Origin: a virus
Lineage: Duplodnaviria; Heunggongvirae; Uroviricota; Caudoviricetes
IMG/VR virus record: IMGVR_UViG_3300042940_001755
Reading direction: 5' to 3' (one strand)
DNA length: 64,000 nucleotides
This document shows positions 16,022 to 55,572 of the stretch, in pieces; position 1 is the first letter of the stretch, and each line of letters begins with the position of its first letter. The notes beneath the pieces were generated by a model, which was given only the letters and a program-made list of their open reading frames with translations, was not told the origin of the DNA and did no database searches. A program made the translations under genes and the position numbers.

Positions 16022-17341
16022 TTAGCATATAACACCTGCTCTTGCTCTCTTGCGAATGTCTTCAAGGGAATCATCACAGTACGGCTGACCATTGAAGTAA
16101 TAGTCAACAAAGTCTGGATGTGTCAATCTGCCGCCCTTAGAGCGCTTACCAGGGTCTGTGACAGGGTCTTTCACAGTATCCACCCATTTGCCATTGATCT
16201 CCATCGCTGAAGTCTTTTGAGCAAACTTATAGGTGTCTCTGTTTAGTTTCTGTAGCAAGCCGCCTCCAGAACCATACACGACATTCTCGGCTGCGTAACC
16301 TTCTTGTTCCACTACTTGTGTCAGCTTTACTAACGTCTCGAAGTCAATACCATCCCCTTGAATGATGCCGACATTGCTCAAGACCTTGTAGCCTTTCGAG
16401 TTAACTGTGCTTTCAAAATACGCGTCAAGTATCTCCAGGATTAGAGGGATTACTTCGACAGCATCACCACTGTCAGGGCGGATAACAGCCTTGATTTTTC
16501 TTCTCTGAATTTCTGCACCGAAGACATTACAGAACATGGAGGTATCATTGTAGATATCATATCCGTCTAACACGATTGACACTATGCCACCATCAGGGAT
16601 AGCATCTAGTACTCTACGTAAATATCCTCCCTGATTGTCCCTTCCGTACGCACATTGAACACTATGTTCCGTCGCAGGGATAGAGAAGCCAGCCATTCTG
16701 CAGAAGTAATTGTCACGCGCCATTATCAGCGCTTGCAGGTTATCAGTTCCTTGGAAGTTAACTAAATGTGCCACACCACCAATTGCAGCTGACTCTCTGG
16801 AAGTTACGCCCCTGGCACCAAAGTCATGGAGAGCGTACGCAGCCATTTCAGGTACATCTGAAGTCTGTGCATACAACGATTCCAACAGCAATCGAGCCTT
16901 TAGGCCGTTAGAGGCAATCGTTGTAGGATACCAGATAGCTCTCTGCAACGCCGTTTCAATATACGACGCTAGCCAGAACAGTCTTGGATCTGTTGTCTCA
17001 ATCACCACTAAGGGTGTCCGAGATGGTACCACAGAGCCTTCAGGTAAGCCTTGTATTAGCAGTGGCAGAAAGCCATTGTGCTCGTCCACAATAATCTCCC
17101 AACCAATCTTATTAAAGGGCACCCCATGCGCGGAGAAGAGTTTCTCCGCTTCTCTTATATCCCCGTGAGTAACAGGCGTTGAGAGATACTCACGGATGAA
17201 CATTTGAAGACCAAAGAAGCAAGTAGCTTCGTTTGCTACTCTCGCTTCGATATAGGCGAACTGGCCTGTGCTGCCTTCTGGGTAGAATGCTGCATGTGAA
17301 GCTTTGTAGCTGTCAGCGTTTAAGATTAAATTGTGACTCAT
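16022..17341 (-). CDS. nadV: Nicotinamide phosphoribosyltransferase (NAMPT/NadV)
   Basis: N-terminal ADSYKASH motif diagnostic of NAMPT, plus ~440 aa length and the GDG/GSGGGLLQ phosphoribosyltransferase core. Confidence 0.85.
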   Translation of the reverse strand: MSHNLILNADSYKASHAAFYPEGSTGQFAYIEARVANEATCFFGLQMFIREYLSTPVTHGDIREAEKLFSAHGVPFNKIGWEIIVDEHNGFLPLLIQGLPEGSVVPSRTPLVVIETTDPRLFWLASYIETALQRAIWYPTTIASNGLKARLLLESLYAQTSDVPEMAAYALHDFGARGVTSRESAAIGGVAHLVNFQGTDNLQALIMARDNYFCRMAGFSIPATEHSVQCAYGRDNQGGYLRRVLDAIPDGGIVSIVLDGYDIYNDTSMFCNVFGAEIQRRKIKAVIRPDSGDAVEVIPLILEILDAYFESTVNSKGYKVLSNVGIIQGDGIDFETLVKLTQVVEQEGYAAENVVYGSGGGLLQKLNRDTYKFAQKTSAMEINGKWVDTVKDPVTDPGKRSKGGRLTHPDFVDYYFNGQPYCDDSLEDIRKRARAGVIC

Positions 17342-17682
17342 TGTTGTTCTCCTCTAGTCAGATTAGCCGCGTTGTCTTCGGCGTAGGTGTTAGGGTTTCT
17401 TTCAGGGTAGTAGCTTTTGCTGAAGCTGCTGCAGTCAGCGACATCAACTCTTTTCTCATACCCTACAGTAGCTTCAGGGTGACTGTGTAACCAGATGTCG
17501 CCCATTCTACTAGCGCCTGTGACGCGGTAGCGATTGCCCTCGAAGGTGCAGAATAGCTTGTACTCTGCGATAAGCTCCTTGAAGGCTATCTGATTGATTG
17601 CTGGGAGCCGCATCAGTAGTAACGCAAATCTCGCATACGTCACTGTGTCTGGCCCATGATCGATAAAGTCATCTACATCCAT
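17338..17682 (-). CDS. hypothetical protein (114 aa)
   Basis: Co-oriented ORF between nadV and the NMNAT-Nudix gene. Confidence 0.45.
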   Translation of the reverse strand: MDVDDFIDHGPDTVTYARFALLLMRLPAINQIAFKELIAEYKLFCTFEGNRYRVTGASRMGDIWLHSHPEATVGYEKRVDVADCSSFSKSYYPERNPNTYAEDNAANLTRGEQQ

Positions 17683-17688
17683 TATTTC

Positions 17689-17988
17689 TTACCCCACAAA
17701 GTTGATTTGAATGGCGAAGTTAGAGCCATCATAGAATAGCCGCTCGATAACAACCTGCTCCACATCAAAAAGGCCTACATCTGTATCGACAATATAGGGC
17801 TCACTTGGTGCGTAGTTGTCATCATCTTCTTTCCACTCGGCTAGCCACTCAGCGACGGCTAGCTCGGCCACTTCCTGCGCTTTACTGAACTCGTTTCCAT
17901 GAAGGACTGCTAAAACTTCCGCTACTTCTTGCACAGCCAATACGACAATGTACTTGGCATCAGTCGGTACTTCTAACTTACTGTACAT
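17689..17988 (-). CDS. hypothetical highly acidic protein (99 aa)
   Basis: Co-oriented ORF. Confidence 0.45.
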   Translation of the reverse strand: MYSKLEVPTDAKYIVVLAVQEVAEVLAVLHGNEFSKAQEVAELAVAEWLAEWKEDDDNYAPSEPYIVDTDVGLFDVEQVVIERLFYDGSNFAIQINFVG

Positions 17989-29200: not shown

Positions 29201-32200
29201 CTAAAATTCTACCATGTCACCATCTGGGTCAAAGTCAGCTAGCTCTAGCCGCCCTGTGTCATAATGGTATTGTGCCCCTCTGACATTCCCTGTCAGACCT
29301 GTGTAGCGCGATTTAAGTACACGCATGAGGATTGTATTACGCTCCTTAGGATCTTCAGCGATAAGATTACGAGCGAAAGAGATTATGTCGAAGGAAATCT
29401 GCTTGATAGATCCAGAGTTGTGTGTCACTGTATGATTCTCTAATAGGAACCTGCCGTTTCCGCTTAGCTGAAAGCCGAAGTAAGGCTGCACATCAAGCTT
29501 CTCAATAAGAATACCACGCTTCAAAGGATCCGTGCGACGGACCTTAGCAACAATTCTAGTGGATTTCTGTGCAGGAATCTTTTTAATATCTCCTGAGATT
29601 GCCACTTCAAAGATAGTGCTTCCGTTAGAACCTGTATAGCTACCAGAAATTATTCTAGGGTGTACAGTGGAATACAAGCCTAGTGAACGTGCAATTCTGA
29701 CCACCTTTCGAGCAGTGTCCTCACACTTCTGGTAGAAGTAGTAGGCATTGTCTTTCACATTATAACAGCCATCTGTATCAATCAAGCCAGCGAGCAAATT
29801 GTACCTTACCGCCTTAGAGTTAAATACATAGACGTCAGGTACATGCTTATTCTCCCACACGCCTAGTTGACGAAGTTTGTCAAGCATTTCACCTTTCAGT
29901 CCCGTGTTGAAGTTGAAGTACTCCCGGTTTGGATCAGAAGGCGCTAATAATTCAGCGCCAATCTCGCCAGCTACTCTGTTTGAAATACCAAGATCACTGG
30001 CATCCATTATTCGGAAGGCAGACTTCGAACCATCGCCAAGCCAAGCTCCGAATGAATACGCAGGAATCAAGACAGGGATTTCAGGCAACTCATAACCTGT
30101 AGAGTAGTGCTGTTTGCACCTAAACTGCCAATTTTCTGACTCCTTCAAAAAATCACCAAGACGGACATCTCTCATGCGATCATTGTGTGACAGAGTTAAG
30201 ATATGGTCCTCATTGCAAATGAACGAATCATTAGAGGTCTTGGTGGTGATACGGTACATCTGTTGCTCGCCATCAAATAGGCGTAACACTTCACGAGGCA
30301 GACCATCATCGCCCATTAACAGGTCGCCAACTTTGATATCCTGCACTGCCCTCGCTCTTCCATTAGATAACAAAATTCCTGTATCGTACGCTAAGCAACC
30401 TCTGATATCATCTATAGAAGGCAGTCTCCCCTCCTCGAATGACTTCTGCCCCGATTGGGCCTTTCTCAGATGGCTCACCAGCCCAATCCAGACATTGTGC
30501 TTCTTGACAATGCGCAGTAGATGATTCATGATCTTGTCAACAGCTTCGTTACCGGTGAGATCCTCCGCACCTTCTGAGACCAAAATGGTAATGTGATCAA
30601 TGAAGAGATACTTACAACCCATAAGCGCCATATACTCCAGCTGATTCACAATAGACACGTCAGCCATCGATCCTTGATGATCTAGACAGAATACTCTGTC
30701 GTTTCCGAAAACATCTTCGAAAGCTGGTTGCAAATCCTCGATGGAGATCTCTTCTGCTGCAGGGTTACGCATTAGCTGCATCCCAGCTAACTTTCTAGCG
30801 GTCTCCGCAGGCGACTCTTCTAGCGCGATAATTCCTATCGCGTCTTGTGTCGTCTGAATGATATGCAGCATTGTCTCGCGTAACATAGTAGACTTACCTG
30901 AATTGTAAGTAATAACGCCATTTCCCAGCACAAAACGGTTGTCCGCGTTAACTTCAAATCCGTAAAACTCGCCGATGCCTATTGGCTCTACTACGAAACT
31001 AAAGCCGATCATGTTGCCTGCCTTATACTGTCTGGCTTGACGGCGTTTCTTTTCGGGCCAAGTAAGATACTCACTGACTAATACAGGGAACATCTCGCCA
31101 TTGGTTCGTATAGCTAGTCGATGAGAATCGTTGCATACAAAGGAAGTGCCATCTTCCAATGTAATGCGATGCATGAGTTCTTCACCTGTAAACAGCGTCA
31201 GAACTTCGCGGGGCATATTACAAGGGCCCATTACATAGTCACCAACCTCGATGTCTTCAACGCAGGACACTCCTCCGTCTAACATCCGAATCATAGTGCC
31301 TGGCGCAAAACAGCCTGTGCCACTAATGAAGAGGGCGATTTCACCCATTCTCATGCCCTTTAACTTAGAGTTTAAGCCCCCTAGACATGGCGGGTAAGGC
31401 AAGCTCTCAGCTTCATTGTACTCGACGAGAGCTTTCCAGATCTCCTCTTTACTGACAATCCCTGCAGGTGTATATCTGCCGGCTTCGAAGATCGCTGTCA
31501 TAAGGGCTGGGGACCCTTTGGTCGTCAACATCTCAGATGCGTCTTTGACTGGGAGCTTCGCTATCTTGATCTTCTCGGCACCGATAATCTTGATACACTC
31601 TGCTAGACACTTCTGCCCAGCTTCATCATTATCTAAGCAAAGGACAACTTCAGCGAATGAGCGGACCCAGTCACGATGTTTCAGCAGCGCCTTTGTGCCA
31701 GAAGCACTTGGCAGAGATACTACAGGGTAAATCTTATTATACTTACTGTGGGCCGCTTGAGCGATACTCATCGCATCTAACTCGCCTTCTGTGATAATGA
31801 GACGTTTGCCATCACTAGAGAATTTATCACGACCGAACAGTTCATCAGATTTACCGACCCAGTAGAACTCCTTATCTTCTACAACGCGGCACTTAAAGGC
31901 TTTATCGCCATATGGGTAGAAGTGTTTTGCTACAGTACCATCTGCTGCCACCTCAGCTCTTACCCCGAAGAACTCTGTAACACTTTTGGTAATTTCACGT
32001 TCTTTAAAGCCTCTAATCGGCAGACCTTGAATGTCTGCTATTTTTTCATGCCCGCTCACATACAGCTCCTCTTCTACTTCGAAAGAATCCCTGTTCTTAC
32101 CACCAGGGCGTTTACCTTTGTTGCAGACGAAACACCACCAATCATCAGGCCCGTATTCCACCTTGCCATCACTGCTGCCACACACATCGCAGCTTACGTG

Positions 32201-32209
32201 TTTAGCCAT
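29201..32209 (-). CDS. T7 gp4-like bifunctional primase-helicase, interrupted in-frame by two inteins (extein ~538 aa)
   Basis: N-terminal zinc ribbon CDVCGSSDGKV..CFVCN. Walker A is split as ISGTG|C...N|SGKST, and helicase motif H4 as IRG|C...N|SGSIKQ. Confidence 0.9.
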   Translation of the reverse strand: MAKHVSCDVCGSSDGKVEYGPDDWWCFVCNKGKRPGGKNRDSFEVEEELYVSGHEKIADIQGLPIRGFKEREITKSVTEFFGVRAEVAADGTVAKHFYPYGDKAFKCRVVEDKEFYWVGKSDELFGRDKFSSDGKRLIITEGELDAMSIAQAAHSKYNKIYPVVSLPSASGTKALLKHRDWVRSFAEVVLCLDNDEAGQKCLAECIKIIGAEKIKIAKLPVKDASEMLTTKGSPALMTAIFEAGRYTPAGIVSKEEIWKALVEYNEAESLPYPPCLGGLNSKLKGMRMGEIALFISGTGCFAPGTMIRMLDGGVSCVEDIEVGDYVMGPCNMPREVLTLFTGEELMHRITLEDGTSFVCNDSHRLAIRTNGEMFPVLVSEYLTWPEKKRRQARQYKAGNMIGFSFVVEPIGIGEFYGFEVNADNRFVLGNGVITYNSGKSTMLRETMLHIIQTTQDAIGIIALEESPAETARKLAGMQLMRNPAAEEISIEDLQPAFEDVFGNDRVFCLDHQGSMADVSIVNQLEYMALMGCKYLFIDHITILVSEGAEDLTGNEAVDKIMNHLLRIVKKHNVWIGLVSHLRKAQSGQKSFEEGRLPSIDDIRGCLAYDTGILLSNGRARAVQDIKVGDLLMGDDGLPREVLRLFDGEQQMYRITTKTSNDSFICNEDHILTLSHNDRMRDVRLGDFLKESENWQFRCKQHYSTGYELPEIPVLIPAYSFGAWLGDGSKSAFRIMDASDLGISNRVAGEIGAELLAPSDPNREYFNFNTGLKGEMLDKLRQLGVWENKHVPDVYVFNSKAVRYNLLAGLIDTDGCYNVKDNAYYFYQKCEDTARKVVRIARSLGLYSTVHPRIISGSYTGSNGSTIFEVAISGDIKKIPAQKSTRIVAKVRRTDPLKRGILIEKLDVQPYFGFQLSGNGRFLLENHTVTHNSGSIKQISFDIISFARNLIAEDPKERNTILMRVLKSRYTGLTGNVRGAQYHYDTGRLELADFDPDGDMVEF
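29417..30397 (-). mobile_element. Full-length intein (~327 aa) with a LAGLIDADG homing-endonuclease domain, in helicase motif H4
   Basis: Begins CLAYDTGILL and ends FLLENHTVTHN followed by Ser. LAGLIDADG motifs: FGAWLGDGSK and LLAGLIDTDGCY. Confidence 0.85.
30902..31312 (-). mobile_element. Mini-intein (~137 aa) inserted in the helicase P-loop (Walker A)
   Basis: Begins CFAPGTMIRMLDG (block A) and ends FVLGNGVITYN followed by extein Ser; no endonuclease domain. Removal restores GTGSGKST. Confidence 0.75.
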
Positions 32210-32379: not shown

Positions 32380-32817
32380 TTAGCCCTCCAATAACGCGTT
32401 TAATCTAATAAGTTCAGCCTTGTGGGCGTCTGTTACAGGCTCTTTTATGAACCAAGAAACTTCTTCCACTCGCTTATTGATCCAGTTGGTCTTGCACGGT
32501 GCATCCACGCTACATAGAGACCAGGTCTCGGCGTAAATGAGACCGCTTGCAGTCTTGTACTCACCCAGCACATAGAAGTCGAAAGACTCCTTTCCATATT
32601 TCTCCACGGTTGCTGCGAGGTCTTTGTTACTACTGACATAGTCTCTCCACTTACTAGGAGCTCCCTTCTGAGCGCCTCTCTTAACGAAATAGTCCTTCTT
32701 CCCTATGTACATCTTATTCTCAGGAAGATCGTGGATAATGTAGACGAATCCAACATATTCAGCTCCGCCCATCTGTGTAGGGTATTGCCAGTGCCCGTTG
32801 AATGTTACTTGCGACAT
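32380..32817 (-). CDS. GIY-YIG nuclease-domain protein (possible free-standing homing endonuclease), start MSQVTF
   Basis: GFVYIIHDLPENKMYIGKK matches the GIY-(x9-11)-YIG spacing; GAGAGG RBS before the ATG at 32817. Confidence 0.45.
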   Translation of the reverse strand: MSQVTFNGHWQYPTQMGGAEYVGFVYIIHDLPENKMYIGKKDYFVKRGAQKGAPSKWRDYVSSNKDLAATVEKYGKESFDFYVLGEYKTASGLIYAETWSLCSVDAPCKTNWINKRVEEVSWFIKEPVTDAHKAELIRLNALLEG

Positions 32818-33182
32818 AGTGCACCTCTCGATTTGATAAATTTGCCGAACTCTGCAAAGGCGACAATACGGTCCACAGACCACTTATACTCGCGTAGCTC
32901 ATCTGGCTTGAAGAAGTGAGTGAGGATGCGGTGCTCATAGACGTAAGGGACCTGCGACACAAGGTAGCCACTGCAGCGCATGTACTCGACGCCTTTGTCA
33001 TCAACCTCATGACTCCAACGAGGGTGAGATGAGCCGTGAGCTTCGCTGTCCGATGTCAAGACTACATAGCATAACAGACCGATACCGCAGATCATGGACC
33101 ATTTAAGCATTATCAGGTCTCCACTCAGTGTTAACTTCCTCTGTAACTTCAACAATGTGGTATAACGTATGATCACCGTCAT
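32805..33182 (-). CDS. hypothetical protein, possible signal peptide (125 aa)
   Basis: Internal MLKWSMICGIGLLCYVVLTS hydrophobic segment. Confidence 0.4.
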   Translation of the reverse strand: MTVIIRYTTLLKLQRKLTLSGDLIMLKWSMICGIGLLCYVVLTSDSEAHGSSHPRWSHEVDDKGVEYMRCSGYLVSQVPYVYEHRILTHFFKPDELREYKWSVDRIVAFAEFGKFIKSRGALCRK

Positions 33183-40534: not shown

Positions 40535-40866
40535 TCTAGCTCCTTTTCTTCTAAGCTAAGAGCCTCACCATTGACCATCACTATCTCGCCAGCACCAATG
40601 CTTCTAACAGCAGCAACGCTATCGATAAAGTCAACTAAGTCTTGGGAGAGTCTGTCTAGACTCGGCTTATTGCGGTACACTGCAATCAGGTTTACACGTG
40701 GACTCCCCTCTTCCCACTTAGTATGTAAATACCCAGAACTCAACACCCACACTGTCGTGACCGGCACAGGTGGTGTAAAATTAGGTCGTGACTCAGCTGC
40801 CAGAGCTGCGTAGTACGTATCATTTCCGCCCATTGTTTCCTCTATAATTGGATTAAGTGAAAGCAT
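40531..40866 (-). CDS. hypothetical protein (111 aa)
   Basis: Co-oriented ORF. Confidence 0.45.
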   Translation of the reverse strand: MLSLNPIIEETMGGNDTYYAALAAESRPNFTPPVPVTTVWVLSSGYLHTKWEEGSPRVNLIAVYRNKPSLDRLSQDLVDFIDSVAAVRSIGAGEIVMVNGEALSLEEKELE

Positions 40867-41617
40867 ATTCGCTCTCTAATACTGCATTGATGTCAAGTGA
40901 GCCGATTTCAAGACCTTCCCAGTTACCTGAGATATCATTCATCAGCGCTACTAGTGGATCGCTAGAGTACAGCTCAACAAACTTCTCTCTAGCGACTCTG
41001 AACAATACATCCATATCCGCACACAAACATCCGTAAGAGTCGTGGATGGTTGTCACAGGGAACTCACAGCCCACCTTAATCATCATTAAGTGTGCTGCAT
41101 CCATGCTATGAATGATATTAGGCGCTGCTCCTTGGCCTTGCTTGCGCTTAGCAGGGACTCGTTCTTCCTTGTGAAGTAGGCTAATCTTGATATCCTTGTG
41201 TCCATAAGACAGGATAACAGGCTTAATAGTGCCTTCTTCATAATGCTGAACCACTTTGAAGCCCGTTACAGGGACAGTCCAGCTGAGGAATTCACCTCTT
41301 TTCTCAGCAGCAATCCCTGCATTACTGAATATCTCAAGAAGCTTCATGGGTTTATTCATGCTATCTTTGCAGCTAGCGTAGATTAGTCTTCCCATGAATG
41401 CTCCCCATTTCCTGTCCAGGTCTAAGAGCGAATCGATGCCGTGCTTCTTGGCATCTTCTATGACCTGCTCAGACATCCCATAAGAAACTGCACCGTATGG
41501 GATAGTCATTACTCCCGCTTGTGTTCCGTAGATGTCGTTAGTTTCTACGCGTAGTTGGTCGCTTGTGTTATCTGACAAAATTGCCAAAAATCTTCTTTCT
41601 CGCTTTCTTCGCTGCAT
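40853..41617 (-). CDS. Single-subunit (T7-like) RNA polymerase, C-terminal segment (exon 2 or C-terminal half of a split gene)
   Basis: AGVMTIPYG .. APNIIHSMDAAHLMM .. VTTIHDSYGCL .. terminal EYAFT aligns with the T7 RNAP C-terminus (SVMTLAYG .. PNFVHSQDGSHL .. LIHDSFGT .. FAFA). The real 5' boundary is unresolved. Confidence 0.8.
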   Translation of the reverse strand: MQRRKRERRFLAILSDNTSDQLRVETNDIYGTQAGVMTIPYGAVSYGMSEQVIEDAKKHGIDSLLDLDRKWGAFMGRLIYASCKDSMNKPMKLLEIFSNAGIAAEKRGEFLSWTVPVTGFKVVQHYEEGTIKPVILSYGHKDIKISLLHKEERVPAKRKQGQGAAPNIIHSMDAAHLMMIKVGCEFPVTTIHDSYGCLCADMDVLFRVAREKFVELYSSDPLVALMNDISGNWEGLEIGSLDINAVLESEYAFT

Positions 41618-42008
41618 TAGCCGCAGCCTCTACCGTTGCAAAGGTACCTACAGTCTTGTTAACACCCCCTTCACAGACTCTAGCACGGTATTTACCAGAC
41701 TTCGTTGCAGTTACACCTTTAGCGCCGGTCTTCGCTCCTTTATTAGGAAGCGTGTTAATACGGTTCTCAGCCACTGAGGCTGCCCTCAGATTAGATATCT
41801 TGTTATTAGCAGGATTTCCATCCTTATGATCAACAACCTTCCCTTTCGGCACTGCTCCTTTATGCATCTCAAACACAATACGATGCACCATTGTCTTCTT
41901 GCCATTCTTCTCTACTTGCACATGCCCTTTGCTATTAGGCGAACCTGCCTTGCGGCCATTCTTGTGCAATAGCCCACCATTCTCTTTATCATAGAGATAC
42001 TCTACCAT
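41568..42008 (-). mobile_element. HNH-AP2 homing endonuclease ORF inserted within the RNA polymerase gene
   Basis: HNH motif GHVQV..MVHRIVFEMHKG..VDHKDGNPANNKISNLR and AP2 domain GVTATKSGKYRARV..TFATVEAAANA. It has its own strong RBS AAGAGGAGG and is in a different frame from the RNAP pieces. Confidence 0.8.
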
Positions 42009-42111
42009 ACAACCTCCTCTTTTGTAGCGACCAGCTACTGCTGCATATTCCGATGCAGGCCAGACTATATCACGATAGCAAATAGCTACCTCCCCCGTTT
42101 CCTGACACTTG

Positions 42112-43653
42112 TCAGTACGCCTTACGGCTAGTCGTTGAACCTTCTTTCAAACCATACTTCCCAGCATTATTTGAAACCTTGGCTGCTGATTGGCCATTAG
42201 CATCACACCATTGGGCTGTTCCAGCAATTAAAGGGATTTTACAAGCGCCTGTAATTAAACGCTTGACTATCTTTCTACGTTCTTTCTTGTCCTTGATACG
42301 ATTCCAGAATATGAAACAAGCAGAATCTTCTAGGAAATGATTTGCCTCTCTGTAGTTCTTTAGTCGTTCCCCTAAGACAACTCTGAGATCACTCCCACGC
42401 TCTGCAGCTCGCACTTCAGCCTTCATTTCTGTAACGACTGTGACGTAATTATCAGCAGCCGCCACTAATTTAGGGTCTAATTCTGCGATTGTCAGCGCGA
42501 TAAAGTTCCAGAGAGAATTTGCAACATACGCATACAAGTCACCAGGAAGTACTGATTTGACAAGATTCACATAGGGCGCAGATGTTTCATCTCTCGTCAG
42601 CATAGCTAGATGTTGACTTCCATTGGTGCTTCCGTCTATGAAGCACTCAAGATGGCTCACAAAAGTCTCTGGATTGCCACTTCGCCATGCTGCTTCATAC
42701 TCCATACAGGCTGCTAAGAACTGCCAGCACTTGTCAGCGCCCATCCACCCTTTAAAGAGCTTGGGTGATGTAGCATACGCCATGATTAGCTCATGATTAT
42801 CATCTACCCACTGCACTCTTTCCTCCAAAGGGATCTTGTCAGTCTTTGCTTTGTCTTCTCTGGCAGAAGTGCCCGCCCAGTTACTGGCAATTGATATCTT
42901 CAGCCATTTAAAGCCAATAGCTCCTAGCGGTTTTGCATCAGCTCGTAGTAGAAGGCCTTTGGCAACATCAGCGCCTTGTTCATGGAGGTAAGCAGATGCG
43001 ACATAGATACGTCCTCTGAAGTCTGTGTAGTAACCATGGTAGAAGATAGCACCTGCCAGATCTTGCGCCATTGTCAGGACTGTGTTGACTTCTCTACCTT
43101 TGGTGATTCTTGCCTCCTTTGAGACTTGTTTCCAAATATCTGAGAAGGCTTCCTCACGGTACTTATGCGCCCATATAGCAATTGCCAGCACTCTCTCGTT
43201 TACTTTCCATCCTACTGCTTGGGCACGGTTAACAGCGTCCAATACCATTGCAGGAACAGCCGGTAATACTGCTCGCGTCTTGATAAGTGGGTAAGTCAGC
43301 TGATCGTGTGTCCTAGAAGTCCAAGGAGAGTAAGGAATAAGTGAAGGGTAGACTGTAGTACTCTGTTTGGAACACTTCCGCCAAGCCTCCACAATAGCCT
43401 CATCATTCAGAACAGCCACTGTGTAGGCACTCTTCTTCCCTATACGTTCTACCTGTATCTTGAGAATCCTGGCAGCTTCAAGGTCGTAGACAAGATCTGC
43501 TGCTGCTTGTGCTCTTACTCTGGAACTGGGATCTCTGGAGAGTTTCGAGCCGAGCGCTGTCAGCACCTCTGACAACACTATTGGCTCATTATATTTAGCC
43601 CTTGTGTACAGAAACAACACCTCCGTAACAGTAGGACAAAGTTCACTAAGCAT
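42112..43653 (-). CDS. Single-subunit RNA polymerase, N-terminal segment (exon 1 plus read-through into the insertion)
   Basis: YHGYYTDFRGRIY and ECFIDGSTNGSQHLAMLTRDE align to T7 RNAP DWRGRVY and DGSCSGIQHFSAMLRDE. The last ~90 codons have no RNAP similarity, so they are probably intron or insert-derived. Confidence 0.8.
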   Translation of the reverse strand: MLSELCPTVTEVLFLYTRAKYNEPIVLSEVLTALGSKLSRDPSSRVRAQAAADLVYDLEAARILKIQVERIGKKSAYTVAVLNDEAIVEAWRKCSKQSTTVYPSLIPYSPWTSRTHDQLTYPLIKTRAVLPAVPAMVLDAVNRAQAVGWKVNERVLAIAIWAHKYREEAFSDIWKQVSKEARITKGREVNTVLTMAQDLAGAIFYHGYYTDFRGRIYVASAYLHEQGADVAKGLLLRADAKPLGAIGFKWLKISIASNWAGTSAREDKAKTDKIPLEERVQWVDDNHELIMAYATSPKLFKGWMGADKCWQFLAACMEYEAAWRSGNPETFVSHLECFIDGSTNGSQHLAMLTRDETSAPYVNLVKSVLPGDLYAYVANSLWNFIALTIAELDPKLVAAADNYVTVVTEMKAEVRAAERGSDLRVVLGERLKNYREANHFLEDSACFIFWNRIKDKKERRKIVKRLITGACKIPLIAGTAQWCDANGQSAAKVSNNAGKYGLKEGSTTSRKAY

Positions 43654-51549: not shown

Positions 51550-52019
51550 TTAAGGATTTCAGAAGCGCGTTCTGCTGTTAACAAATTTAGCTCTACTAAA
51601 CGGGCTACGCCGTCATTGAGAGTCTGGTCAATCTTGATCACCTTGGCTAAACGTGCATCATCAAGAATTCTAAGGAAGTCCACAACATACGCGTCAGTGC
51701 TGGCGTAAATCGCGACACGCTCGTCTGTGGTGAACCGCAGCTTGAATGCCACAGGATTTAAGGGAGAAGCCAAGGCGGTGGCAATTGCAATATCTTGAGA
51801 CGAAACAGGCGCTCCTGCCATGACAGGAGGTGGCGCTAGCATGTCCACCACCTCCTGATCTGTTTTACCAATATAGATGTCGGCCAATACACCGTTGATG
51901 ATGCGGTAGCGCTCAACAATAAGACTGTCGTTTACGCCTAATTCAAAGATGGGGAATAAGATACCATCAGCAGACGCCGATAAGTAGCCTTTATCTGGTT
52001 GTGGAAAATAAATAAACAT
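51540..52019 (-). CDS. hypothetical protein (159 aa)
   Basis: Co-oriented ORF. Confidence 0.45.
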   Translation of the reverse strand: MFIYFPQPDKGYLSASADGILFPIFELGVNDSLIVERYRIINGVLADIYIGKTDQEVVDMLAPPPVMAGAPVSSQDIAIATALASPLNPVAFKLRFTTDERVAIYASTDAYVVDFLRILDDARLAKVIKIDQTLNDGVARLVELNLLTAERASEILNWC

Positions 52020-53371
52020 TAAAAGCCTCCAATATAAAGTCGGTTACCGCTAGACGTCTTAGGCGACGCCAGCGATGTTGTTGTTGTTCCTGCAAGTAGA
52101 GCATTCTTGATATCTGTCATTGTTGCAGCAGGATGATACGCTTTGTAAAGAGCTGCAGCTCCTGTGACATGAGGCGCCGCCATAGAAGTCCCGTTAAAGG
52201 ACATATATTTTGAGCTCCACTCACGAGTCGTTGGATCGAAAGAAGGGACGGAAGAGTTGATACTGACACCGGGTGCACCAAGTTCTACACAGTTACTTCC
52301 ATAATTACTAAAGGAAGCCAAGGCGCCTGCGCTGTCGATTGCTGCAACGCCTATGACGTTTGCTTGGGAGTAACATACAGGATACACCGGCGTTGAATTG
52401 AGATTTACCGTAGAGTTACCTGCAGAAGTTACGAACAGTATTCCTGCAGAATTTATAGCATCAATAGCTGACGACAACGCAGTAGACGGTGAAGTGCTAC
52501 CTCCCCACGATGCGTTGATCGCCACGATAGGGACGCTTTTGTAGTTCTTCATGTAGGCTGCATAATTCAAAGCTCTAGCAGCTGCATCTGTGTAGCAGGC
52601 GCCTTTCTCGCAGACCTTAAGCGTCATGATCTTCGCCGTCCAACAGATACCTGCAACACCGATTGAATTCCCTCCTCTCCCTGCAATCGTTCCCGCAACA
52701 TGAGAGCCGTGAGAATTTGCAGACTGCGTTACAGACGCTCCAGTAATGTCGCTAGAGTATCGTGGCACGTAGGCAGAGCCGTTCCATGTCAGCTCCATTC
52801 CTCCTGAGTCATATATCGAGGAGTTGTTGCCATCGAAGTCCCATCCGTAAAGATCGTCTTTGTAACCATTGGCATCATCGTCATAGGTGTTAAAGCTCTC
52901 TCCAGGATTGGACCAGATGTTATCGATTAAGTCCTCATGCAGATTATACGTACCTGTATCAGTGATACCTACGACTACGCTACTACAATCTGTTCTACCA
53001 TTCGCCCACGCCGAGCTAGCACCGCTGCCGTATGTGCCGAACATGCCCCACAAATATGAACTGTTGGCGTACGTATCATTTGCAGTGGCGTCTGTCTTGT
53101 AGATCTGGTTCTTCTCTACATACTTGACGCCAGACTTTTTAAGGAGTATTCGGGACAGTAGCTCCAAATTACTACCTCTAGGGAGAGTAACAGACATTGT
53201 ATCGCCATCGATCATCGTCTTCAACTCGCCTTTAACAGACTTGAGGATACCTTCTCTATCTGCTTCTTTATGAAAGCCGATGATAAGTGTGTCTCTTTGA
53301 AAGTCAGCCGAGACATCTGCCGAGAACAGTATCAACGTCAAGAATAAAAATCTAATCATAATCATAATCAT
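52019..53371 (-). CDS. Secreted subtilisin-family (peptidase S8) serine protease with signal peptide and I9-like propeptide
   Basis: Catalytic triad contexts VGITDTG (Asp), HGSHVAGTIAG (His), GTSMAAPHVTGAAAL (Ser). N-terminal MIRFLFLTLILFSADVSA signal. Confidence 0.8.
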   Translation of the reverse strand: MIMIMIRFLFLTLILFSADVSADFQRDTLIIGFHKEADREGILKSVKGELKTMIDGDTMSVTLPRGSNLELLSRILLKKSGVKYVEKNQIYKTDATANDTYANSSYLWGMFGTYGSGASSAWANGRTDCSSVVVGITDTGTYNLHEDLIDNIWSNPGESFNTYDDDANGYKDDLYGWDFDGNNSSIYDSGGMELTWNGSAYVPRYSSDITGASVTQSANSHGSHVAGTIAGRGGNSIGVAGICWTAKIMTLKVCEKGACYTDAAARALNYAAYMKNYKSVPIVAINASWGGSTSPSTALSSAIDAINSAGILFVTSAGNSTVNLNSTPVYPVCYSQANVIGVAAIDSAGALASFSNYGSNCVELGAPGVSINSSVPSFDPTTREWSSKYMSFNGTSMAAPHVTGAAALYKAYHPAATMTDIKNALLAGTTTTSLASPKTSSGNRLYIGGF

Positions 53372-55572
53372 ACCATTAAGTAAGAGACAGGAGTCCATTG
53401 AGGGTTCACGTAGCCTTCGCCGGATTGTGCGTACACAGTAAAGCCGCAGTAGTAGCCTGTGTAGCCTGTAAAGGTGAAAGAAGTAGAGGTGGTGTTGCCG
53501 CTTGTGATTTCAACCCAAGCTGCGCCGCTCCAGTACCATGCCTTCCAGAAGTAAGTGTATGTAGCACCAGCGTAAACGCTCGACCACGAGCAAGTCACAG
53601 TTGTACCTGATTTCGACACAGCTGAGCCAGCTACACTTGTAGGCATAGCGACCAAAGGTCCTAAAGCTGTCAGCTCCGCTTCCGTGTAGAGGTACGCAAA
53701 ATTAGAGTAGTAAGACCCTGCAGCTATAATGTTGTAGTCTTGAACAGCGATGTTGCCCTTAAAGCCAGGTGCGATATCTGTGGTCGGTGACGATACGCTC
53801 CTTGCAGCATTGTTATACGAAGTGACTGAGCTCCATGATCCATTTATTCGCATATATACTTGGCGCCCAGTAGCCGAAGCATGAGCTGCAATCGCACAGC
53901 CGCACGTGCCCCCAGAGTAGTACTTGCTGGACAATACAGGGTCTAGCATGACCGACCAAGCAGAATAGCTACTAGAGTTCAGACTGTAGGAGGTTCTCCA
54001 CGCGTTATCGAGATACACTTCTCTCGCTGACTGCACATACAACTTGATCAATACACCGTCGGCGCAGTCCACTCGATACGTTGCGGACTTAGCAAGGAAA
54101 CGACTAGAACCGATCACACCGTTAGTCTCCACCCAGACGATCATTGCGGTGGCAGCTGCAGGTAGCGATGTCGTGAACACCACATAAGACGTGAAATTCT
54201 CACTGAAGCCTACAGTCGGGTCTGCAAGATAGCAATACGAATACCATTGATAGTAATACTGTGACCACGCAGTTCCATTAGCTGTAACACGCTTAGAGGC
54301 TACCGCACATTTGATAATAGCTCCCGGCGTTACTGCTCCTCGGCCAGTGCCGAATCCCGCAGAGCTGTTTATTGTTTGAGGTGAATCAGCTACTCCGTCA
54401 ATACTCCAGATGAGCTCGACATCAGTCCGATAGGCGTCACCATCTATCCACATCTGCGCACCATTCGCCGTCGGTGAAATAGTCCCGGTAACGGCAGATA
54501 GGTATGTGAAAGTGGTATACGCCATATTGTACTTCGAGTAAGACTCACCATCAGGGATAGTACGGTACGCGTACCCTGTTACTTTGACTATTGTCCCCGG
54601 GTTAAGCGTCTTAGGAATGTTAAGCTCTGAGACAGTAGGTTGTTTGACTTGAGCTGCAGCCACACCGTCAATGGTGACAACATAGTAAAAGCCGGTCTGA
54701 TTGGCCACTGCGCCTAATGAAACCGTCACAGTAGTAGTCGTCCTATTGGACTCCCCGAACACGACGTCAGCTAGCCAACAAAAGCTCCATGTAGTCCACT
54801 CTCTGGAGTTAGGAATGTTTGTTAAAGTATCTGCGTAGTACCTTAGTACTTTAACTTCAGTCCCCGCTGGCACGCCCGAGAAGTCAACGTTGACTACTCC
54901 GTTAGCAGCCACGGCAACCCCTGTGTAGCTGGCGTCAAGCACTCCATCCACCCACTTTCGGTAGAAGACCTTATTGGCTTTATTGACATTATTCGTCAAA
55001 GTGAATCTGAAAGCAGAGGTGGTTCTTTGTGCCTCCACAACTACCGCATCACCGACCGGATCATCCAAGCAAGTATAGTAGTTCGTCATGTAGAAGTAAT
55101 TCATGGAGTTACCTCTGACGGAATAGAGTTTTACACAATACTGAGTAGCCGCTGCCAACAACCACGCGCTATTGGCGTCCATAATGTTTAGATTGAACGA
55201 CGTAGCAGGCGCGATATCGGCACCTCCAATATACACGCCCCAGTCTTTGGCGTAGAACAATATCTCGTAGTAATCGGCTGCAATATCTGTTGACACACCA
55301 GAGAAGGAAAAGCCATGCGGAAAATACGACCACATATTTGACGTCAATAATTCAGCAGGCCTAGTACATCCGTATAGTTCTCTCAAGGAAATAGGGGCGC
55401 CTGCGTAACCCGCTTCGTCCCCTCCTGCGTTTCCTGTTAGAGTTGCCGATAACGCCGCCAGCCTTCGAAGATTGTCTAGAGACACCTTCGTATTGGAAGC
55501 CACACCTCTTTCAGTGTTCACTGCAGATAATGATAACGAACCGTTAAAGGGCGTTGCGACTAATGTCATCAC
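53368..55572 (-). CDS. Large virion structural protein, likely tail fibre or receptor-binding (734 aa; T/S/Y/W-rich beta repeats)
   Basis: Composition and position between the tail-fibre gene and the protease; no catalytic motif recognised. Confidence 0.45.
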   Translation of the reverse strand: MMTLVATPFNGSLSLSAVNTERGVASNTKVSLDNLRRLAALSATLTGNAGGDEAGYAGAPISLRELYGCTRPAELLTSNMWSYFPHGFSFSGVSTDIAADYYEILFYAKDWGVYIGGADIAPATSFNLNIMDANSAWLLAAATQYCVKLYSVRGNSMNYFYMTNYYTCLDDPVGDAVVVEAQRTTSAFRFTLTNNVNKANKVFYRKWVDGVLDASYTGVAVAANGVVNVDFSGVPAGTEVKVLRYYADTLTNIPNSREWTTWSFCWLADVVFGESNRTTTTVTVSLGAVANQTGFYYVVTIDGVAAAQVKQPTVSELNIPKTLNPGTIVKVTGYAYRTIPDGESYSKYNMAYTTFTYLSAVTGTISPTANGAQMWIDGDAYRTDVELIWSIDGVADSPQTINSSAGFGTGRGAVTPGAIIKCAVASKRVTANGTAWSQYYYQWYSYCYLADPTVGFSENFTSYVVFTTSLPAAATAMIVWVETNGVIGSSRFLAKSATYRVDCADGVLIKLYVQSAREVYLDNAWRTSYSLNSSSYSAWSVMLDPVLSSKYYSGGTCGCAIAAHASATGRQVYMRINGSWSSVTSYNNAARSVSSPTTDIAPGFKGNIAVQDYNIIAAGSYYSNFAYLYTEAELTALGPLVAMPTSVAGSAVSKSGTTVTCSWSSVYAGATYTYFWKAWYWSGAAWVEITSGNTTSTSFTFTGYTGYYCGFTVYAQSGEGYVNPQWTPVSYLMV

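Follow-up and report, generated by a model that had tools for sequence, protein, structure and literature searches.

The primase-helicase gene and its two insertions

The stretch of DNA analysed here (the window; 64,000 nucleotides of IMG/VR virus record IMGVR_UViG_3300042940_001755, Caudoviricetes) encodes on its minus strand a primase-helicase precursor of 1002 aa and 111.9 kDa (29201–32209 in the list of open reading frames (ORFs), stop codon 29201–29203), in which two inteins separate three extein segments. All segments of the gene lie on the minus strand, and a slash in the motifs below marks the peptide bond at which an intein is inserted. The N-extein (aa 1–299; 31313–32209) aligns to residues 13–315 of phage T7 gp4 and contains a Cys4 zinc ribbon (aa 7–29), a TOPRIM primase domain (aa ~136–227) and a linker, after which the helicase domain begins and extends as far as ..FISGTG, the first half of Walker A. 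Intein 1 is a mini-intein of 137 aa (aa 300–436; 30902–31312) that begins CFAPGTMI, ends GVITYN and is followed directly by SGKST. The middle extein (aa 437–604; 30398–30901; T7 gp4 316–488) runs from this second half of Walker A through motif H1a, Walker B (LFIDHI) and H3 (VSHL) to ..SIDDIRG, the first half of motif H4. Intein 2, with 327 aa (aa 605–931; 29417–30397), combines HINT and LAGLIDADG domains, begins CLAYDTGI, ends HTVTHN and is followed by SGSIKQ. The C-extein (aa 932–1002; 29204–29416; T7 gp4 489–548) completes H4 with its second half (SGSIKQISFD..) and continues through the arginine-finger segment VLKSRYTG to the C-terminal tail.

Removal of both inteins in silico yields a protein of 538 aa and 59.7 kDa with the junctions ...FISGTG/SGKSTML... 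and ...SIDDIRG/SGSIKQ..., the joined H4 site reading ...GATGATATCAGAGGT/TCTGGATCTATCAAG.... Compared with T7 gp4 (PDB 6n7i, 566 aa), the precursor gives a match in three pieces that is broken exactly at 299/437 and 605/931 (E 9e-49), whereas the spliced sequence matches as a single stretch (query 3–530 to gp4 13–548, E 3.9e-65) with a gap at neither junction. The insertion in Walker A (GTG/SGKST) falls between T7 gp4 G315 and M316 and is called site a; the insertion in H4 (DIRG/SGS) falls between G488 and S489 and is called site b. A Toprim_2 domain was detected in the precursor (Pfam, 5.3e-12), and the features of a gp4-type primase-helicase of superfamily 4 (SF4) are all present in the one polypeptide, namely CDVCG..CFVC, Toprim_2, GTGSGKST, LFIDHI, VSHL, DIRGSGSIKQ and KSRYTG. 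By these sequence features the host gene is a T7 gp4-type bifunctional primase-helicase.

The Pfam searches of the precursor also returned Hom_end_hint in two stretches (3.5e-34), Hint_2, and LAGLIDADG_3 with Hom_end within aa 790–875. The G+C content is uniform across the segments of the gene (0.445–0.476), and by this measure neither intein has the look of a recent acquisition from a source of foreign composition. The identical 1002-aa protein, labelled "hypothetical protein" in its sources, occurs on 9–11 contigs in NCBI, JGI, ENA and Logan assemblies, the longest being a JGI metagenome contig of ~107.7 kb; this recurrence across several data sources indicates that the phage carrying the double-intein gene is in circulation. 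A megablast search of the gene against cultured phages gave no match, so that no cultured phage is closely related to this one; Roseobacter phage CRP-7 has the best-matching extein (53%). Neither a second gp4-like gene nor further inteins of the family of inteins 1 and 2 were found within the window.

Sequence and predicted structure of the inteins

Both inteins belong to the class-1, PI-SceI-like Hom_end_hint family, and over the first ~75 residues the two share 46% identity. The blocks common to both are C-x-x-x-T, CNxxH, YGF...RF and T(H/Y)N, followed by a +1 Ser. In intein 2 these are represented by C605, the block B sequence CNEDH and the C-terminal ..RFLLENHTVTHN931 ahead of Ser932, and Pfam assigns it Hom_end_hint, LAGLIDADG_3 (aa 804–857) and Hom_end. 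An AlphaFold2 (AF2) model of intein 2, with a predicted local distance difference test score (pLDDT) of 84.8, has the whole of PI-SceI as its best Foldseek match (E 1.4e-23, TMq 0.76–0.81), followed by archaeal VMA inteins and PI-PfuI, and its middle domain matches I-DmoI. The first LAGLIDADG motif, FGAWLGDGSKSAFR (aa 720–733; 30011–30052), includes FGAWLGDGSK (aa 720–729), and the second is GLIDTDGCYNVK (aa 808–819; 29753–29788), also delimited as LLAGLIDTDGCY (aa 805–816). The acidic residues are kept in both motifs (WLGDG, aa 723–727, and LIDTDG, aa 809–814), and in an alignment of 12 site-b inteins both motifs fall in invariant or near-invariant columns, with G-D-G-S-K of motif 1 invariant. 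As judged from sequence and model, intein 2 is a bifunctional intein of the PI-SceI type with a predicted homing endonuclease. Some other site-b inteins have the look of a decaying endonuclease: P0025, of 245 aa, has lost the first LAGLIDADG motif, and P0011 has LLDTGG in place of LIDTDG. Both would fit stages of the homing cycle.

Intein 1, to which Pfam assigns Hint_2/Hom_end_hint, is without an endonuclease domain. It has Cys1 (C300), block B CNDSH, block F/G ..FYGFEVNADNRFVLGNGVITYN, a penultimate Tyr435 and a terminal N436, and its +1 residue is Ser437 of Walker A. Its AF2 model (pLDDT 91.3) adopts the HINT fold and is closest to the Cryptococcus Prp8 mini-inteins (Foldseek template modelling (TM) score 0.89–0.91, root-mean-square deviation 1.5 Å), and it also superposes on PI-SceI domain I and on the gp41-1 intein. 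Sequence matches are likewise to PI-SceI and Prp8, the first 55 residues aligning to PI-SceI with a domain E value of 3.9e-10. The initial annotation of this gene had described a gp4-like ORF of 1002 aa with two Cys...Asn/Ser insertions, the second holding both LAGLIDADG motifs (here aa 720–733 and ~805–819) and the first having no endonuclease and a Tyr in place of the penultimate His, and had proposed that excision restores Walker A and H4; the boundaries, the comparisons with gp4 and the domain matches reported above bear this description out in each respect.

Occupancy of the two sites in related phages

The 120 best homologue clusters were aligned to the spliced sequence. In 67 of them (551–602 aa) there is no insertion at either site, and the remaining 53 carry an intein in the P-loop, in the H4 region or in both. 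Insertions of the Cys...Asn form are found in the P-loop of 47 clusters, 44 of them exactly at site a and three located two residues upstream of it (ISG/...HN/[ST]GAGKS). This third bond is that of P0035, P0038 and P0039 (..ISG/C...THN/[TS]GAGKSS), whose inteins form a clade of their own. Fourteen clusters, including the truncated P0026, have an insertion exactly at site b. The +1 residue in occupied clusters is Ser, occasionally Cys. Two inteins occur in eight clusters, the present protein and seven others (P0002, P0003, P0005, P0006, P0008, P0009 and P0010) that have full-length inteins at both sites. The initial annotation had named conserved gp4 insertions, present also in intein-free relatives, as an outcome that would speak against inteins, and the 67 clusters that precisely lack the insertions show the opposite; its description of a double intein as uncommon was overstated, given that 53 of the 120 clusters have at least one intein and that the layout has been published for the DnaB of Mycobacterium smegmatis (PMC6195587).

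A neighbour-joining tree of the HINT cores places the 13 complete site-b inteins in one clade, and intein 1 with its twin from P0004 within the site-a group. Because the tree separates the clades of the two sites, inteins 1 and 2 are, on this sequence comparison, paralogues, each belonging to its own site-specific lineage. The site-a mini-inteins (P0001, which is the present protein, and P0004; P0033 and P0047; P0042; P0043; P0049; P0052) differ in the end points of their deletions; the endonuclease has thus been lost repeatedly at this site.

The closest extein relative, P0007 (87–93% identical), has an empty site b. Across it, the 30 flanking residues agree fully with the joined exteins of the window, as do 67 of 90 nucleotides; the site-a intein of P0007 is full-length and only 45% identical to intein 1. 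Site b is also empty in P0004, whose exteins are 80–85% identical to those of the present protein. Such sporadic occupancy of site b is the pattern expected of homing, and the uncoupling of occupancy at each site from extein phylogeny is likewise what mobile elements would be expected to show. The intein family is large, with 6053 representative clusters at E<=1e-3 in a library of 1.84 billion proteins, and is found in 686 cultured-phage records, mostly helicases and terminases. Members also occur elsewhere: the Ruegeria phages DSS3-P1 and vB_RpoS-V7/V11/V18 have unannotated inteins in their tape-measure genes that match the 137-aa mini-intein over its full length at 37% identity.

Proposed splicing and homing

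The observed anatomy, boundaries, folds, empty alleles and family membership lead us to conclude that the gene very probably encodes a gp4-type precursor interrupted by two self-excising class-1 inteins of the PI-SceI family, one a mini-intein and one with a LAGLIDADG domain. The 112-kDa precursor would be made first, with intein 1 (15.4 kDa) between Gly299 and Ser437 and intein 2 (36.9 kDa) between Gly604 and Ser932. Excision of each intein would then follow the usual four-step pathway, starting with an N-S acyl shift at Cys1; transesterification onto the +1 Ser would come next, the terminal Asn would cyclise, and an O-N shift would complete the reaction. The product would be a contiguous 59.7-kDa helicase whose ATP site and DNA-binding loop would exist only after splicing. 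During co-infection, the endonuclease of intein 2 would cleave the H4 codons of alleles that lack the intein, and repair would copy the intein into them. Intein 1, its endonuclease lost, would persist by vertical descent, since the P-loop tolerates only its precise deletion.

Several points weigh against this interpretation. At the penultimate position (G:6), where His is strongly conserved in class-1 inteins though known to be dispensable, intein 2 has His and intein 1 has Tyr435, encoded by TAC, a single transition from the His codon CAC. In 243 family members with located C-termini the residue is His in 227 (93%) and Tyr in 7, the remainder having Ser, Arg, Lys, Ala or Glu. At the block-F position, intein 1 has Asn where PI-SceI has His (ADNRF vs SDHQF); its sequence lacks both of the usual helpers of Asn cyclisation. 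It also has a long branch in the neighbour-joining tree. The constraint on the mini-intein discussed below is measured as protein identity and not as a ratio of nonsynonymous to synonymous substitution rates (dN/dS), the search for a back-up helicase covered 64 kb of a ~107-kb genome, and splicing activity, endonuclease activity and homing are what we infer from the gene and its relatives.

The missing His does not exclude intein 1 from class 1, because splicing without it has been documented (PMC5050341, PMC4031507). Phage class-1 inteins often lack the penultimate His and still splice, with the residue at this position tuning the accumulation of precursor (Kelley et al. 2016, PMC5050341), and class-1 splicing without it is attributed to Chen, Benner and Perler (2000) as cited in PMC4031507. 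The non-canonical phage inteins of Kelley et al. resemble intein 1 in having a phage replication protein as host and a residue other than His at G:6, and splicing was demonstrated there; those tested carry Gly and others at G:6, whereas intein 1 has Tyr in addition to lacking the block-F His. The literature consulted gave no case of Tyr at G:6.

Comparison with P0004, a relative of 676 aa that carries only a mini-intein of the intein 1 type, bears on whether this intein functions. The GVITYN end is kept in P0004, and its mini-intein is 93.4% identical to intein 1, with nine substitutions, all conservative, compared with 80–85% in the three extein segments, which argues for constraint on the mini-intein. 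A second, independent lineage of inteins of the same family that end in TYN was observed in another P-loop, ..FWTG[SK]G/CHS...VTYN/SNGKS, of ~1200-aa proteins (P0182, P0190 and P0205). These three, which are among the 7 Tyr cases counted above, share TYN at a mutual identity of only 32–43%; the Tyr is therefore stably maintained in that lineage.

Two further accounts of the Tyr may be considered, both of them unlikely. The TYN mini-intein could have a catalytic route of its own, with the Tyr hydroxyl or a residue of the extein standing in for the two missing histidines, or its splicing could be deliberately slow or conditional and so gate replisome assembly in the phage; were this so, the TYN of the second P-loop lineage would mark a recurrent, selected variant and not drift. 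Quite unlikely, in our estimate, is an intein 1 that, owing to the His-to-Tyr change together with the missing block-F His, is splicing-impaired, conditional or slow, such that precursor accumulates and the supply of helicase is throttled or timed, or such that, at the extreme, the gene is a recently inactivated pseudogene. The rarity of Tyr among the family members, the Asn in block F and the effect of the penultimate residue on precursor accumulation all lend this account some weight, as does the finding that P-loop inteins of DnaB can act as conditional switches (PMC6195587). Set against it are the retention of TYN in P0004, in an intein better conserved than the exteins around it, and across the divergent inteins of the other lineage, an ORF that is intact over 3 kb in a phage seen repeatedly, and the fact that a dead intein in the P-loop would abolish the sole gp4-like helicase seen in the 64-kb window. 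We conclude that splicing of intein 1 most probably takes place, its kinetics perhaps altered.

Very unlikely is a primase-helicase that is enlarged by retained segments, the insertions serving as accessory Hint-like or bacterial intein-like (BIL-type) domains or as a domesticated LAGLIDADG DNA-binding module. Nothing specific to these proteins favours such retention beyond the occasional domestication of Hint and LAGLIDADG domains in other proteins, and it is at odds with the position of the insertions, each of which splits its motif (Walker A or H4) at one peptide bond, with the complete set of splicing nucleophiles (Cys1, terminal Asn and +1 Ser), and with the lack of insertions in most orthologues and an occupancy that does not correlate with extein phylogeny. 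An artefact or chimera of assembly, conceivable in that the sequence comes from a metagenome, has a negligible probability given the identical protein in assemblies from four sources, a reading frame open through both insertions and the even G+C content.

Neighbouring genes

Directly upstream of the primase-helicase gene lies a gene for a SegE-type GIY-YIG endonuclease (32380–32883, minus strand; Pfam 8.7e-18), and a homologue occupies the same position on the P0004 contig. This endonuclease could mobilise the neighbouring region, including the endonuclease-less mini-intein. A T7-like single-subunit RNA polymerase is encoded in two ORFs within 40853–43653 on the minus strand, one (42112–43653) matching positions 1–139 of the Pfam RNA_pol profile and the other (40853–41617) positions 162–373; the last ~75 positions of the profile were not located at this locus. 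Between the two lies an ORF for a homing endonuclease with HNH_3 and AP2 domains (41568–42008), and the RNA polymerase gene may be split or intron-interrupted. The heavy load of selfish elements that the initial annotation saw in this genome is supported in part, by the SegE-type gene and by the HNH-AP2 ORF that splits the RNA polymerase gene. A split DNA polymerase A gene, suspected from a partial Pfam match, was rejected, as the 649-aa ORF includes motif C and the ORFs downstream are unrelated. Auxiliary genes on the minus strand at 16022–19193 and 52019–53398 encode a NAMPT-type nicotinamide phosphoribosyltransferase and an NMNAT-like/NUDIX fusion (NAD salvage) and a subtilase; the subtilase has a fervidolysin-like prodomain and adjoins tail-fibre genes.

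Comparison with known intein systems

Both the P-loop and the H4 site are intein hot spots in marine-type phage primase-helicases; ~44% of the nearest homologue clusters carry an intein there. Inteins of one site are related to those of the other and yet form a clade of their own, and the P-loop mini-inteins have arisen several times by loss of the endonuclease. Gene callers label such proteins "hypothetical", "WhiA" or "RNase M5", and recognition of the inteins corrects these labels. The compact 137-aa intein, with Cys1, a +1 Ser and a mildly unusual Tyr at G:6, also offers itself as a candidate for tests in protein engineering.

In sequence and among solved structures, PI-SceI (yeast VMA1) and the fungal Prp8 inteins are closest to both inteins. 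PI-SceI shares with them the block B NxxH and the C-terminal YYG..F.L.N..V.HN, and its LAGLIDADG domain architecture is that of intein 2; the host proteins and insertion sites of PI-SceI and Prp8 differ from those described here, and intein 2 is ~125 aa shorter than PI-SceI. The yeast VMA1 intein was also considered as a parallel for insertion in a P-loop and was dropped, the PDB alignment placing the VMA1 site at VG/CGER. Among cultured phages, the "putative helicase" of Vibrio phage RYC (BAV80986, in AP014858; 1017 aa) is a primase-helicase with an unannotated LAGLIDADG intein of the same family in Walker A. It differs in having one intein, inserted at the classic GK/T bond (GDTSVGK/C...THN/TT), and an extein only ~28% identical. 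Only general surveys, and no prior description of inteins in gp4-type primase-helicases, were found in a literature search whose coverage was incomplete and gives no proof of novelty.

The nearest parallel to the arrangement as a whole is found in cellular DnaB. In M. smegmatis DnaB, the P-loop houses a mini-intein without a homing endonuclease (HEN), DnaBi1, and the DNA-binding loop H4 a HEN-containing intein, DnaBi2 (Kelley et al. 2018, PMC6195587). The two systems share an SF4 replicative helicase as homologous host, a P-loop mini-intein, a class-1 HEN intein in H4 and a +1 Ser at both sites. They differ in the intein families, both inteins of the phage protein being PI-SceI-like, and in the host, a phage gp4-type fusion as opposed to a cellular DnaB. 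DnaBi1 is of class 3 and directly precedes the P-loop Ser found after the Lys, whereas intein 1 is class-1-like, with Cys1; the DnaB-b or "classic" P-loop bond has the Ser/Thr after the Lys as its +1 residue (PMC6195587, PMC5050341), and the bond used here, G/SGKS, lies two residues upstream. In the survey of Novikova et al. (2016, PMC4760082), the P-loop holds DnaB site b and H4 holds sites a and c, two residues apart, and P-loop and H4 inteins are found together in "a number of" actinobacterial and cyanobacterial DnaB proteins; the phage protein resembles these in that the inteins are confined to the ATPase domain and P-loop and H4 are occupied together. By alignment, the present H4 site maps to DLRE/SGSIEQ of Escherichia coli DnaB, in the motif that holds DnaB-a and DnaB-c; the exact DnaB H4 flanks (SIEQD) were not found in the literature search. 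The double-intein layout is the gp4 counterpart of the layout described for DnaB, a kind already known, and it leaves the current understanding of inteins unchanged; it provides a clean, well-bounded case of a phage SF4 replicative helicase of the gp4 type that has been invaded by two inteins, mirroring what is seen in cellular DnaB.

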